The notes: a model not told the origin generated them from the sequence alone. A DNA stretch of 64,000 nt from an uncultured Flavobacteriaceae bacterium (GCA_963793275.1 CAWBZL010000002.1:101590-165589), one strand, 5' to 3'; counted from the stretch's first letter, positions 29,162 through 32,552 are shown. A program made the numbers and translations.

Positions 29162-29228
29162 ATGCCTTTTTCTAAAAGGATCCTACAAGTTCGTTACGGT
29201 GATTAAGAACACATTAAAGATCACTAAA

Positions 29229-29804
29229 ATGAACACAAATACACATAATTTATACTTATTCAAGGCTATGGAGGCATACCCTTGGGACCTTGAAAAAGCG
29301 GTTGAAGCATTGCAATATGCTTTGTCTTACGAACCAGAAAACGTAACCGCCCTTTGTTTGATGGCAAAAGTACACGCCGAACAACTAAGCGATTATGAAA
29401 CCGCAAAAAGCTATTTTGAAAAAGCAGTAGCAAGCGATATACGTGCCACCAAAATATATCCGGATTATGTACGTACGTTACTACAGAATCACGATTTTGA
29501 GGAAGCTCAAAAGCTGATAGATTTTGCGATGACTGTAAAAGCGGTGGATAGAGGTGGTTTACAATTATTGCAAGGGCAATTGTTTGAAAACTTGCAAAAG
29601 TTTGAAAAAGCTGAAGCAGCTTTAAAAGAAGCTCGTAACCTAGGGTTAAATTCAGATTTTATCGAATTTGTTGAAAGCGAATTGGAGCGCGTCACCAAAA
29701 AAAGGGAACGCCAAAACAATGAGCAAAAAACCGACAACTCTAAGGAAACAGCTAAAACGGAAGATTCAAAAAGCTGGGTCCACAGGCTAAGTAGCTTACT
29801 ATAA
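29229..29804 (+). CDS. TPR-like helical repeat protein with charged C-terminal tail
   Basis: Helical repeat pattern (ALCLMAKVHAEQLSDYETAKSYFEKAV). ATG at 29229 preferred over the upstream GTG. Confidence 0.55.
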   Translation: MNTNTHNLYLFKAMEAYPWDLEKAVEALQYALSYEPENVTALCLMAKVHAEQLSDYETAKSYFEKAVASDIRATKIYPDYVRTLLQNHDFEEAQKLIDFAMTVKAVDRGGLQLLQGQLFENLQKFEKAEAALKEARNLGLNSDFIEFVESELERVTKKRERQNNEQKTDNSKETAKTEDSKSWVHRLSSLL

Positions 29805-29876: not shown

Positions 29877-29960
29877 GGGAGTGCGTCAACGCTGGAGAGT
29901 TGAGATAGTCTGTAAAACTATTCCTTAGTAGCTGAATAGGTTCAAATCCTTTCACTCCCA
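29877..29960 (+). tRNA. tRNA-Tyr (GTA), class II, 84 nt
   Basis: Acceptor GGGAGTG/CACTCCC, anticodon arm ATAGT-CTGTAAA-ACTAT, variable stem TTAG/CTGA, T loop TTCAAAT. Atypical C8 and one U-U mismatch in the T stem. No encoded CCA. Confidence 0.75.
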
Positions 29961-29963
29961 CAG

Positions 29964-30036
29964 AGTACCGTAGTTCAAAGGCTGGAGCGTCCGGTTGTCT
30001 CCCGGAAAGGTACGGGTTCGAGTCCCGTCGGTACTG
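29964..30036 (+). tRNA. tRNA-Asp (GTC)
   Basis: Acceptor AGTACCG/CGGTACT, D arm GTTC/GAGC, anticodon arm TCCGG-TTGTCTC-CCGGA, T arm ACGGG-TTCGAGT-CCCGT, discriminator G. Atypical A1-U72 and U37. Confidence 0.85.
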
Positions 30037-30115
30037 CGAATGATATTGAAGGAGTTTGCATCGGGACGAGAAGTTTATCCTGAGTAGTGGTGAGGCACGA
30101 GCCGCGAATCGAAGG

Positions 30116-30130
30116 GAGTCCCGTCGGTAC
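30116..30130 (+). repeat. 15-nt direct copy of the tRNA-Asp 3' end (GAGTCCCGTCGGTAC)
   Basis: Identical to 30020-30034, the T-loop/T-stem/acceptor 3' strand of tRNA-Asp, and lies 96 nt downstream of it. Confidence 0.85.
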
Positions 30131-30168
30131 GGTCATGCCTCCGACGAGAGAGGCACGAACCAGAGGAA

Positions 30169-30240
30169 GGCACTTTAGCATAGTGGTTGGTGCACCTCAC
30201 TTTCTATGAGGAGACCAGGGTTTGATTCCCTGATGGAGTA
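30169..30240 (+). pseudogene. tRNA-Glu(TTC)-like unit with non-pairing acceptor strands
   Basis: The D arm GCAT/GTGC and anticodon arm CCTCA-CTTTCTA-TGAGG are good, and the T stem CAGGG/CCCTG pairs. But the T loop is TTTGATT (no C56), position 37 is U, and 5' GGCACTT versus 3' ATGGAGT pair at only 3 of 7 positions. Confidence 0.5.
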
Positions 30241-30244
30241 CAAT

Positions 30245-30340
30245 GGGCTTATGGTGTAGCGGATAGCATGCTTGGCTTCGAACCAAGTGGTATGTTGCCT
30301 GTGCCGCACTTGATGCGGTATTCAAATCCTGTTAAGCCCA
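30245..30340 (+). ncRNA. 96-nt tRNA-Arg(TCG)-like element with an inserted hairpin and no canonical T stem
   Basis: Perfect acceptor GGGCTTA/TAAGCCC, D arm GTGT/GCAT, anticodon arm CTTGG-CTTCGAA-CCAAG. This is followed by 33 nt containing hairpin CCGCA-cttga-TGCGG (30304-30318). A TTCAAAT loop is present but its flanks (CGGTA / CCTGT) do not pair. Confidence 0.5.
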
Positions 30341-30345
30341 CAAAT

Positions 30346-30418
30346 TGAGGTATAACTCAGCGGCTAGAGTACCGTGCTTTTAACACGGGAGTCCTAGGTT
30401 CAAATCCTAGTGCCTCAA
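30346..30418 (+). tRNA. tRNA-Lys (TTT)
   Basis: Acceptor TGAGGTA/TGCCTCA (one G-U), D arm ACTC/GAGT, anticodon arm CCGTG-CTTTTAA-CACGG, T arm CTAGG-TTCAAAT-CCTAG. U1-A72. Confidence 0.85.
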
Positions 30419-30422
30419 CAAT

Positions 30423-30493
30423 AAACCCATAGTGTAGTGGTAGCACACAAGATTTTGATTCTTGGGGTCTGAGTTCGAATCTCGGTGGGTTTA
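30423..30493 (+). tRNA. tRNA-Gln (TTG)
   Basis: Acceptor AAACCCA/TGGGTTT, D arm GTGT/GCAC, anticodon arm CAAGA-TTTTGAT-TCTTG, T arm CTGAG-TTCGAAT-CTCGG. Confidence 0.85.
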
Positions 30494-30501
30494 CACTATA
30501 T

Positions 30502-30574
30502 GGAACAGTAGCAAAGCGGGTCAATGCACTGGATTGAAGCTCCAGGAATACGGGTTCGAGTCCTGTCTGTTCCA
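30502..30574 (+). tRNA. tRNA-Phe (GAA)
   Basis: Acceptor GGAACAG/CTGTTCC, anticodon arm CTGGA-TTGAAGC-TCCAG, T arm ACGGG-TTCGAGT-CCTGT. Confidence 0.85.
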
Positions 30575-30730
30575 CGAAAGGTCTGTAACGCAGATGATAG
30601 TATCAAGCGGGTCTTGTTGTGTGTTTCGGTATAGCACCATTGCATACGGCGTTGCAACTAGTATTGCGAACGTATGTGCAACTTGACTTGAAGGTTTTGC
30701 TGTTTTCCAAAAAATAGCGGCAATCGTTTC

Positions 30731-30754
30731 GTGGGTTCGAATCCCACTCCCGCC
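30731..30754 (+). other. orphan tRNA T arm plus 3' acceptor-type strand with no matching 5' strand upstream
   Basis: GTGGG-TTCGAAT-CCCAC followed by TCCCGCC. No GGCGGGA-like partner exists in the preceding 156 nt. Confidence 0.6.
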
Positions 30755-30757
30755 CAA

Positions 30758-30842
30758 GCAGGGATAGCGTAGTGGTTAACGCACCAGATAAAGGATCTGG
30801 CAAACGAGAGCAGATGTCGCGGGTTCGACTCCCGCTCCCAAT
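30758..30842 (+). ncRNA. 85-nt tRNA-like element with a non-canonical anticodon loop (TAAAGGA) and an 18-nt variable region
   Basis: D arm GCGT-AGTGGTTA-ACGC and T arm GCGGG-TTCGACT-CCCGC are perfect. Anticodon stem CCAGA/TCTGG pairs, but loop position 33 is A (or a 6-bp stem with a 5-nt loop forms). Own acceptor strands GCAGGGA / TCCCAAT pair at only 4-5 positions. Confidence 0.45.
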
Positions 30843-30846
30843 GTAA

Positions 30847-30916
30847 ATTGGGGTAGCTCAGTTGGTAGAGCACTGCACTTTTAATGCAGGTAATGGACTC
30901 AAAATCCATCATCGTA
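30847..30916 (+). pseudogene. tRNA-Lys(TTT)-like unit lacking a matching 3' acceptor strand
   Basis: ATTGGGG-TA-GCTC-AGTTGGTA-GAGC and the anticodon arm CTGCA-CTTTTAA-TGCAG are canonical. The T arm ATGGA-CTCAAAA-TCCAT lacks TTC. The 3' strand CATCGTA does not pair with the 5' strand. Confidence 0.5.
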
Positions 30917-30973
30917 AAGAAGGTCAACTTTTAAAAAAGACCACCAGCCTGTCACGCTGTTAAATTTGACAAA

Positions 30974-31336
30974 AATAGTATGGGAAGCGTCGGTTTAGAT
31001 TTGCTGAAACGTGAATGAAGAACACTCCTGAAAGTACCTTGAGTGGCGCCGGTGGCTAGTAAAGAATAAATTTCTTTGTGAGCATTTTGAAACCATTGAA
31101 CCTTTTTATTAGGAATCCGTACCTGGAGCCTACTAAAAGGAAGGATGTGGTTTCAACGCCTTACAAACAGGTTTTGTAACTGGTAGCCACCCCGTCACTC
31201 CGTCACTGGAAAGAGGATGTGCCCTGTACTGTTTTTAATTGAAAAGGATTGCGTTAGGGATTGAGCGTTATGTATGAGCTCTTTTTAATTGTTTGAGCAA
31301 TTAGAAAAGCGAGTAGCGAAAGCCCGACCCAGTATT
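30974..31336 (+). ncRNA. candidate large structured RNA (four-way-junction core at 31023-31221)
   Basis: No ORF longer than 14 aa across 30917-31345. Hand-found nested helices include a 16-bp helix 31041-31058/31184-31200 enclosing three hairpins. See findings for details. Confidence 0.4.
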
Positions 31337-31448: not shown

Positions 31449-32552
31449 ATGAAAAGAGTTAGAATTAATACCGGAATGGTAGGTTTGGTCTTCAAGAGAG
31501 GAGATTACAAACGAGTAGTAACACAAGGTGTCTATTGGTTAAGCTTTGGAGAGCGTGTTGTAAAATACAACCTTGCCGAAGCCATGCGCAAGGCACCCGT
31601 AGCATTAGAAATTCTTGAAAGGGACGAAGCTTTGGTGGCCCTTTGGCACCAGGTAGATGTTTTGGATACAGAATTGGTCATCGTTTATAAGAACGGCCAA
31701 TACAACCAGATATTAACAGCTGGAAGATATGTATTCTGGAAAGGGTTGATAGACTACAGCTTTACACGTGTAGACCTTACAAAGATCTATATCACGGAAG
31801 CGATTGATACGTCACTTTTTGCCAAATTAGAATTGGCCAAGTATATCCGTTCTTTTGAAGTGGCAACATCTGAAAAAGCGGTGCTTTTAGTAGACGATGT
31901 TTATGTGAAAACCTTAACCGGTGGTACGTACCGCTTCTGGAGAAATGAAACCACTATTAAAATTGCAAAAGCAGATATGCGACAATTGCAATTGGAAGTA
32001 GCTGGACAGGAATTGTTAACCAAGGATAAAGCGGCAATCCGTATCAACTTTTACGCGCAGTATAAAGTAAGCAATGTGGAGCGAGCGCTCTTGGAAAATA
32101 AGGACTACGAGAAGCAATTATACGTGGCTATGCAGTTGGCGTTACGTGCGTATGTAGGTACGTATACTTTAGACGAACTTTTGGAAAACAAATCACAAAT
32201 CGCGAACGCTGTGTTTGAAGACACAAAGACAGCCGCAGATAAATTGGGTGTTACGGTAGTATACTGTGGAATCCGGGATGTGATCTTAACCGGGGAAATG
32301 AAGGACATCATGAACCAGGTGTTGGTTGCACAAAAGAAAGCTCAGGCTAATGTAATTACAAGACGTGAAGAAACAGCTTTGACCAGAAGCTTGTTGAATA
32401 CCGCCAAATTAATGGAGGACAATACCATGCTTTACAAATTGAAAGAGATGGAATACGTAGAGAAAATTGCCGACAAGATTGGCGAGATCACCGTTTCCGG
32501 AAACGGAAACATGGTGAAACAATTAACCGAAATTTTTGCGGTGAGCAAATAG
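31449..32552 (+). CDS. SPFH/band-7 (slipin-like) domain protein
   Basis: The C-terminal half matches the SPFH pattern (LTKDKAAIRINFYAQYKV..., coiled-coil tail). Confidence 0.8.
   Translation: MKRVRINTGMVGLVFKRGDYKRVVTQGVYWLSFGERVVKYNLAEAMRKAPVALEILERDEALVALWHQVDVLDTELVIVYKNGQYNQILTAGRYVFWKGLIDYSFTRVDLTKIYITEAIDTSLFAKLELAKYIRSFEVATSEKAVLLVDDVYVKTLTGGTYRFWRNETTIKIAKADMRQLQLEVAGQELLTKDKAAIRINFYAQYKVSNVERALLENKDYEKQLYVAMQLALRAYVGTYTLDELLENKSQIANAVFEDTKTAADKLGVTVVYCGIRDVILTGEMKDIMNQVLVAQKKAQANVITRREETALTRSLLNTAKLMEDNTMLYKLKEMEYVEKIADKIGEITVSGNGNMVKQLTEIFAVSK

Follow-up and report, generated by a model that had tools for sequence, protein, structure and literature searches.

The spacer directly behind the tRNA-Asp gene of the analysed DNA (a 64,000-nt stretch of a Flavobacteriaceae chromosome, hereafter the window) probably holds a module of the tRNA-linked repeat (TLR) type, which would be a structured RNA co-transcribed with the preceding tRNA and carrying a tail that reuses the 3'-processing signal of that tRNA; the probability of this reading was put at roughly 0.55. 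The feature is judged to be neither an attachment-site (att) scar nor a dead tRNA gene; it is taken instead for a tRNA-linked repeat of compact form and conserved structure which, as far as the tools employed here show, had previously gone unannotated outside E. coli.

The module is located within a tRNA array flanked by a TPR ORF on one side and an SPFH/Band 7 gene on the other. Among 80 syntenic loci (L001-L080) representing many genera, most have a tRNA array ahead of the same SPFH gene, with 0 to 19 tRNAs depending on the genus and a largely fixed gene order; in the fuller of these arrays, Pro or Ser genes are found between those for Asp and Glu. Amongst the relatives fetched, the MAG UBA1903 was closest to the window, its neighbouring SPFH protein being 93% identical. 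The module starts 25 nt past tRNA-Asp on the same strand, with no plus-strand terminator-like site between the two, nor any within the array. The features of the region are given below, with tRNA-Asp nucleotides numbered according to the Rfam tRNA model alignment.

29199-29804, TPR ORF
29877-30910, tRNA array, between the TPR ORF and the SPFH/Band 7 gene
29964..30036, plus strand, tRNA-Asp (GTC), the cognate tRNA of the module (ARAGORN; Rfam tRNA model, 55.4 bits)
30020..30034, plus strand, first copy of the 15-mer, tRNA-Asp nt 57-71 (3' part of the T loop, 3' strand of the T stem and 3' strand of the acceptor stem)
30038..30061, plus strand, leader from the tRNA to the module, of lineage-specific sequence partly common to the closest relative, L001
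30058..30128, plus strand, whole module (covariance model R1, 53.8 bits, E = 9e-11, full model 1-52)
30062..30067, plus strand, P1 5' strand CGGGAC, pairing with 30118-30123 (read from the sequence)
30068..30077, plus strand, junction GAGAAGTTTA (alignment A2)
30078..30084, plus strand, P2 5' strand TCCTGAG (family pairing statistics; P2 is predicted independently by RNAalifold)
30085..30109, plus strand, P2 terminal loop, comprising a lineage-specific 24-nt insertion (30085-30108) and an unpaired T (alignment A1)
30110..30116, plus strand, P2 3' strand CGAAGGG, with tandem G·A/A·G pairs to 30082-30083, its last G copying tRNA nt 57
30116..30130, plus strand, tail, being the second copy of the 15-mer (tRNA-Asp nt 57-71), of which 30118-30123 form the P1 3' strand
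30131..30169, plus strand, degenerate second module unit with a 20-nt internal deletion (local alignments)
30170..30241, plus strand, tRNA-Glu-like sequence, next in the array after the spacer (Rfam alignment, 42.3 bits, with non-standard pairs marked)
31449-32552, SPFH/Band 7 gene

Model R1 was built from 39 modules of other genomes, with the window left out, and its scan of the window returned the copy at 30058-30128 as the only one. Beyond the 15-mer, the tail differs from tRNA-Asp at nt 72 (G for T) and matches it at nt 73, so that 16 of 17 positions agree through the discriminator. The tRNA-Glu-like sequence at the far side of the spacer has an acceptor 5' strand that is 3 nt short.

The first-pass annotation of this DNA had drawn attention to the 15-mer GAGTCCCGTCGGTAC as an exact duplicate of the tRNA-Asp 3' end, and both of its positions, 30020-30034 and 30116-30130, were confirmed, with 81 nt between the copies. 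The string has just these two matches in the 64 kb, even with one mismatch allowed, where 100 shuffles gave an expectation of 0.00. The annotation was right that the repeat is non-random and has the form of an att-type direct repeat. The shorter repeats that had been listed within the spacer also exist, namely GAGGCACGAGCC at 30092 and GAGGCACGAACC at 30150, which together make up repeat family D14, and, by direct reading of the sequence, GACGAGA at 30065 and 30143 and TGCCTC at 30136-30141.

These internal repeats proved to have a different origin from that proposed. The first GAGGCACGAGCC copy sits within the P2 loop region (30085..30109), and the second GACGAGA, the GAGGCACGAACC copy and TGCCTC are all held by the 39 nt at 30131-30169. 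This segment aligned to the module with a score of 25 and a 20-nt gap, a score reached by 12 of 500 shuffles, and to the L002 sequence between tRNA-Asp and the module with a score of 38, reached by none of 500; on the strength of these alignments, the better of which is that to the L002 leader, we take it to be the remnant of a second tandem unit. The GAGGCACGA(G/A)CC and GACGAGA repeats are therefore explained by this remnant holding one copy of each and the module with its loop insertion holding the other. Tandem units also occur in L029, L067 and L132 (as intact pairs) and in further loci. The 24-nt loop insertion is common to the window and L001 only (alignment A1), and forms an extra stem of 5 bp between 30087-30091 (GTGGT) and 30101-30105 (GCCGC) that exhibits compensatory differences between the two, as read by eye from the same alignment.

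It had further been suggested that TGCCTC could pair with either of two GAGGCA copies in mutually exclusive hairpins. Such pairings can be drawn, the local TGCCTC/GAGGCA hairpin is part of the centroid fold, and L002 retains a TGCCTCC...GGAAGGCA pairing. However, the spacer is no more stably folded than its shuffled versions (z = -0.25), and so the proposed hairpins are without thermodynamic support; one GAGGCA is part of the lineage-specific loop insertion, which is missing from almost all family members, and the other belongs to the degenerate unit. A conserved counterpart of the alternative hairpins was not seen among the relatives examined, and a regulatory switch built on them is considered very improbable.

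A BLASTN comparison of the spacer with the syntenic loci revealed two blocks, TCGGGACGAGAAGTTTATCCTGAG and CGAAGGGAGTCCCGTCGGTAC, which directly follow tRNA-Asp in Aquimarina, Tenacibaculum, Aureitalea and other Flavobacteriaceae, and which are usually spaced about 7 nt apart in these relatives as opposed to 24 nt in the window. The distance from tRNA-Asp to the conserved core ranged from 17 to 84 nt in the 80 syntenic relatives, with one longer instance, L001, that results from internal insertions. The module was situated right behind tRNA-Asp in 12 of the 39 syntenic Flavobacteriaceae loci that have this tRNA. Its tail tracks the changes in each genome's own tRNA-Asp, reading CCCAT in L003 and L037, TCAGTAC in L067, CGATAC in L060 and ATCTCG in L132, and 17-21 nt of exact tail identity were found in relatives. 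In L006 (Jejuia), the same core follows tRNA-Leu(TAG) and has a tRNA-Leu tail, together with a strand before the core that is complementary to that tail. When 510 tRNAs were scanned blindly for a repeat of their final 15 nt, copies turned up downstream only, barring whole-gene tRNA duplications, and these followed tRNAs for Asp, Leu, Cys and Pro. Relatives of the window either carried the same module or were cleanly devoid of it; an intact tRNA at this position, or a repeat absent from relatives, had been named in the first-pass annotation as pointing away from any att-like significance, and neither was encountered.

The modules with tail copies after tRNA-Cys (L012 3597-3696, L019, L026, L029, L051 and L066) and tRNA-Pro (L044 3223-3305 and L053) have different, longer bodies built on the same principle. 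They end in a helix of a 5' strand and the copied T-stem 3' strand, which closes a small AAG-hairpin-AA loop, and they may be reduced relatives of the same family.

Metagenomes were searched with the pattern AGAAGTTTAYNCTGAG, a gap of 4-34 nt and YCGAAG, which retrieved at least 120 stretches; this pattern fixes part of the junction and P2 sequence, and the invariance of the metagenome copies is therefore partly by construction. A slightly looser pattern applied to all loci gathered gave at least 151 matches, 102 of which have a tRNA less than 600 nt upstream. Among the matches listed, a tail identity of at least 12 nt to the upstream tRNA was present in 76 of the 102, and these 76 represent at least 24 tRNA species. 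The family set assembled from Flavobacteriaceae genomes and metagenomes comprised 71 non-redundant copies, likewise behind at least 24 tRNA species. Of 66 measurable pairs among the matches listed, 64 have an identity block whose first nucleotide is tRNA nt 57 or 58, and in 38 the block runs to 1-4 nt beyond the discriminator; longer blocks represent tandem units. Both the tail and the P1 5' strand follow whichever tRNA is upstream. One carrier contig of 863 kb, L094, belongs to the Patescibacteria/Levybacteria, judging by the names of its trigger-factor relatives, and the motif thus exists in at least two phyla.

Searches of known families and sequences returned little. With Rfam 15, the window region (E up to 10) gave no RtT match, and only a chance-level match to the snoRNA sR60 overlapped the module (17.3 bits, E = 1.5); for canonical copies in 18 loci (E up to 1), no family overlapped. 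BLASTN searches with the core found no copy in 5,426 E. coli genomes and four weak partial matches in phage records. The 16-nt core string, as DNA, RNA or reverse complement, had no match in the literature searched, and the part of it dealing with Flavobacteria tRNA arrays and tRNA-linked repeats contained nothing relevant beyond a paper on the E. coli TLRs (PMC8144298).

The same annotation had considered that the repeat might be left from a decayed tandem tRNA copy. A pseudogene of tRNA-Asp or of another tRNA would suit an array that includes degenerate members, such as the Glu-like gene with its broken acceptor stem, and in whose fuller counterparts Pro or Ser genes separate Asp from Glu; the 5' strand of the module is, moreover, partly like the T-stem 5' strand. 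Against such an origin, neither ARAGORN nor the Rfam tRNA model found a tRNA on either strand of 30038-30169, in agreement with the earlier failure to draw a tRNA fold there, and intron-tolerant ARAGORN run over the array added no further tRNA. The similarity to tRNA ends sharply at nt 57/58, with no resemblance to a D arm or anticodon arm in the spacer, and the same conserved, non-tRNA core recurs behind at least 24 tRNA species. In L012, the module is present in addition to an adjoining intact tRNA-Pro. The five module nucleotides that would correspond to tRNA nt 49-53 are identical to them in only 12 of 71 modules; full pairing of the equivalent helix is seen in 19 of these 71, compared with 65 of 71 real T stems. 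Descent from a dead tRNA is hence extremely improbable and in practice refuted; the figure of 12 in 71 also led us to reject a P1 5' strand simply copied from that of the T stem, as in attR.

The consensus of the TLR-type module consists, in order, of the P1 5' strand, the junction GAGAAGUUUA, the P2 5' strand YNCUGAG, a variable loop, an unpaired Y, the P2 3' strand CGAAGnR, an A and the tail, where R copies tRNA nt 57 and the following A copies nt 58. P1 forms between its 5' strand and tail nt 59-63, less often extending up to nt 65, and P2 has tandem G·A pairs and a variable terminal loop of 4 to 30 nt across the family. In alignment A2, nine of the ten junction positions show no variation, and conservation at the first is at least 90%, values that the search pattern partly fixes.

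In a gap-free alignment of 39 modules, standard pairs accounted for 85.5% of cells, compared with 75.8% in shuffles, and double-change cells numbered 79 compared with 34; the combined pairing and double-change values were reached by none of 500 shuffles, and pairing dropped to 37-55% when the 3' partners were slid by 1-3 columns. The P1 pair adjacent to the junction was CG 17 times, UA 17 times, and GC and UG twice each in this alignment. For the P2 pair N-n1, which the search pattern leaves unconstrained, the counts were CG 60, AU 5, GU 3, GC 2 and UA 1. G·U combinations outnumbered A·C by 48 to 11 at well-paired positions, which identifies the tRNA-sense strand as the folding strand. RNAalifold independently recovered P2, and P2 only. 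In syntenic loci chosen without the pattern, P2 is kept with other sequences, for instance as UGAG/CUUA in L038 (all standard pairs) and as CCCGCC/GGCGGG in L060. In the window, the minimum free energy fold differs from the proposed module fold, and the consensus structure is not preferred on energetic grounds.

Within the module, no consistent pairing partner exists for tail nt 66-73, which correspond to the acceptor strand. Complementarity of the leader to these nucleotides was weakly greater than in permutations (mean run 4.69 versus 4.22, with the fraction of runs of at least 6 not significant), and a mimic of the full acceptor/T-arm minihelix was discarded, this complementarity being marginally above permutation. 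Readings as a hammerhead, k-turn (C/D box), hairpin ribozyme or T-loop were rejected following comparison of consensus sequences by eye, no family matching the canonical copies. A link to group I introns was likewise dismissed, as the partial Intron_gpI match in L142 is the upstream tRNA's own intron.

At several metagenome loci, including L094, L175, L187 and L195, the gap begins with CTTCGAC, and these copies have an extra hairpin (CUUCGAC ... GUCGAAG) right behind the tRNA and ahead of the module. The 7-mer CTTCGAC is also found behind GAGAAG in the E. coli tyrT TLR units. An interpretation of CTTCGAC and GTCGAAG as MITE terminal inverted repeats was not retained: they pair locally, as an extra upstream hairpin in Patescibacteria-type copies, and are absent from Flavobacteriaceae copies.

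Filled and empty sites are one clean unit apart, as is evident from L012 (filled) and L061 (empty), which differ by exactly one unit between direct repeats. This would be expected if the module and tail were an att-type end, or a miniature derivative, of tRNA-targeting integrative elements, arriving through integration and remaining after the element body had been excised by recombination of the tail with a distal att copy; the hairpin would then be a single-strand recombination structure or an arm site and not a functional RNA. Att cores in tRNA genes usually span the T loop (nt 57/58) to a few nucleotides past the gene, and the family identity block has the same boundaries. Repeats of islands and prophages that target tRNA genes through P4-type and related tyrosine integrases further resemble the window repeat in being 15-20 nt copies of a tRNA 3' end that start in or near the T loop, and in leaving the tRNA gene intact.

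What sustains this alternative is a single case, L205, a circular-looking IMG/VR contig of 13,743 nt with 83-nt terminal repeats and a tyrosine integrase. Over 182 nt it is 98% identical to a chromosomal tRNA-Asn site, L129, and this att-like region contains tRNA-Asn from the T arm through to its 3' end and, behind it, the module and tail with a terminator on either side; elements of the L205 type could move modules between genomes. The two genuine viral-contig modules, in L205 and L206, lie less than about 900 nt from an end of the stretch analysed; in L205, for which the whole contig was taken, the distance to the contig end is at most about 120 nt. A serine recombinase-like ORF (L084) and a transposase-like ORF (L112), both recognized by eye, were found immediately behind the tail. 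Integron attC sites are brought to mind by the variable terminal loop, and the module also resembles them in its shape-recognised hairpin with variable outer-stem sequence and its array context.

Several observations nonetheless oppose a recombination footprint. Although the repeat has the direct-repeat form that led the first-pass annotation to suggest an integration scar, the island that such a scar implies is lacking: neither the window nor any of the 80 syntenic loci has one between the copies, the 81 nt in the window are filled by a conserved structured element with no integrase and no cargo, and empty sites lack one module unit only. The module site is conserved across genera and is not island-polymorphic, and the module has been kept over genus-level divergence in spite of easy scar-free deletion. 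The genes just behind the tail, named by eye from translations, were ordinary chromosomal genes in most of 33 loci examined (nusG after tRNA-Trp, tuf after tRNA-Thr, udk, atpD and SPFH). In L205, the element body is downstream of the tail and not between the tRNA and the tail, and the roughly 35 nt between the P1 strands are a misfit for a classical core site. The excess of G·U over A·C and the tandem G·A pairs speak against a double-stranded DNA palindrome. Unlike attC sites, the module has a conserved inner part, is linked to a tRNA end, folds on the sense strand and is accompanied by neither an integron integrase nor cassette ORFs. A general association with integrases was rejected, as a phmmer search of 1,740 ORFs with the L205 integrase found itself and one weak match, the neighbours were mostly ordinary, and in most carriers no recombinase was found close by. 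On balance, a footprint origin is regarded as unlikely.

The module could alternatively be a selfish or neutral repeat with no cellular function, spreading by slippage, unequal crossing-over or template switching at tRNA 3' ends, its structure reflecting the copying mechanism only. Tandem units are indeed common (five in L116, three each in L147 and L176, and two each in L029, L067 and L132), and decay has gone further in distal units than in those next to the tRNA (L029b, L067b and 30131-30169 of the window). The distribution is patchy, as the 12 occupied loci amongst 39 with tRNA-Asp attest, and the TLRs of E. coli are also without established function (PMC8144298). On the other hand, the junction and P2 are near-invariant across Bacteroidota and the Patescibacteria contig (partly fixed by the pattern), and the covarying pairs with freely varying loops conform to a pattern of purifying selection on the fold. 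Nor is a mechanism known by which each tRNA would receive a newly made, complementary P1 5' strand. A purely selfish or neutral repeat is accordingly considered rather improbable.

The TLRs of E. coli, to which we compare the module, comprise 22 copies at ten loci, none with an established function, and their hallmark is a terminal 3' segment of 18-19 bp that duplicates the 3' end of the preceding tRNA or rRNA (PMC8144298). The units include rtT/RttR after tyrT and tyrV, and RrA, RrB and RrF after 5S rRNA (Egan & Landy 1978 and Rudd 1999, cited in PMC8144298). The latter three are transcribed with their operon, processed to a discrete RNA and bind Hfq and CsrA in vitro; the RrB 3' end maps 3 nt past the repeat, which its authors propose to be recognised by RNase E (PMC8144298). 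Like these units, the window module lies on the same strand immediately behind a stable-RNA gene, here tRNA-Asp within an array and presumably in the same operon, and repeats the 3' end of that gene, with 15 nt exact in the window and 17-21 nt in relatives. In a tRNA with encoded CCA, the last 18-19 nt begin at about nt 58, giving the same left boundary. The E. coli TLRs are often tandem and often placed between two terminators, as is also the case in L129 and L147.

Several short strings are similar as well. In the tyrT/tyrV TLRs, GGGGAAGGAT is complementary to the tail ATCCTTCCCC and is directly followed by GAGAAG (by eye), with a CGAAG...CTGAG pair further on; the rrnB TLR has TCCTGAG...CGGAGGG, a near copy of P2 by eye, and the 10-mer TCCTGAGTAG in common with the window. 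Such shared strings may point to common ancestry. The E. coli units differ in their length of 100-180 nt and their large extra hairpins, the present family being compact (about 52 nt plus the loop), linked with no fewer than 24 tRNA species, and known from Bacteroidota and Patescibacteria. The best R1 score of an E. coli TLR was a non-significant 9.7 bits. Because R1 does not score the E. coli units, we treat homology to them as unproven, and assign the module to the TLRs by their hallmark. The 3' external transcribed spacer RNAs of tRNA precursors, such as 3'ETS-leuZ of E. coli (PMC8144298), are comparable in that they are functional small RNAs released from downstream of a tRNA, yet they have no copy of the tRNA end and no motif in common with the module.

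As a TLR-type RNA, the module would be co-transcribed with the tRNA array, as suggested by the array having no plus-strand terminator-like site. By analogy with RrB, the copied tRNA end and the few nucleotides past the discriminator may allow the tRNA 3'-end machinery to cut the module in an equivalent manner, which would release a stable RNA of roughly 55-80 nt whose conserved junction could then meet a putative partner. The two copies, at 17-21 nt and less than 100 nt apart, might be kept identical by slippage or unequal crossing-over, processes that would also yield tandem amplification and scar-free loss; the identity of the tail could be kept by recombination alone, without any function. 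A more speculative and rather improbable reading holds that the module is a mobile or templated system that attaches behind any tRNA gene through tRNA-guided copying, or is the genomic precursor of a small RNA resembling a tRNA 3' fragment. A templated system would have to copy the tRNA from nt 57/58 onward and write the matching complementary strand, conceivably by RNA-level ligation and reverse transcription or by hairpin-based single-strand recombination. If true, either version would at the same time account for the TLRs of E. coli, unexplained since 1978.

Those units have been known for as long, most of them without a function or known origin, and the compact form described here is easily aligned, with a clear consensus structure and a simple rule, in that the tail reproduces the tRNA end from nt 57/58 onward and the 5' strand complements the tail. 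Absent from Rfam, this form follows at least 24 tRNA species across Bacteroidota and a Patescibacteria contig, and it opens processing, binding partners and the gain and loss of copies to cross-phylum comparison and experiment. For annotation, the tail copies are mistakable for att scars of genomic islands or for tRNA fragments. The relevance of the module to RNA biology and annotation is judged to be moderate.

The array upstream of the SPFH gene (29877-30910 and L001-L080) includes odd anticodons, namely Tyr-ATA, Ile-TAT and a TTA 'stop', and looks like an accessory array whose rate of decay differs between lineages. A Ser(CGA)-like tRNA with a long arm at 30245-30340 scored 39.5 bits with Rfam and was not called by ARAGORN, and the 182-nt gap at 30576-30757 ends in a complete T arm and acceptor 3' strand, with no detectable 5' half. 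A non-coding element of about 165 nt at 30812-30975, which lies 300-540 nt ahead of the SPFH/Band 7 gene, is present at 75-82% identity in most syntenic Flavobacteriaceae loci, including arrays in which few or no tRNAs were called, and consists of tRNA-like pieces in permuted order (T arm, closed acceptor-like hairpin and D arm). A partial match to the Rfam YrlA (Y RNA-like) family at 30811-30878 reached 42.4 bits, below the gathering score of 69. The Flavo-1 RNA motif (RF01705) occurs above its gathering score near the SPFH gene in two of the syntenic loci, L006 (7132-7204, minus strand) and L029 (5714-5841, plus strand).
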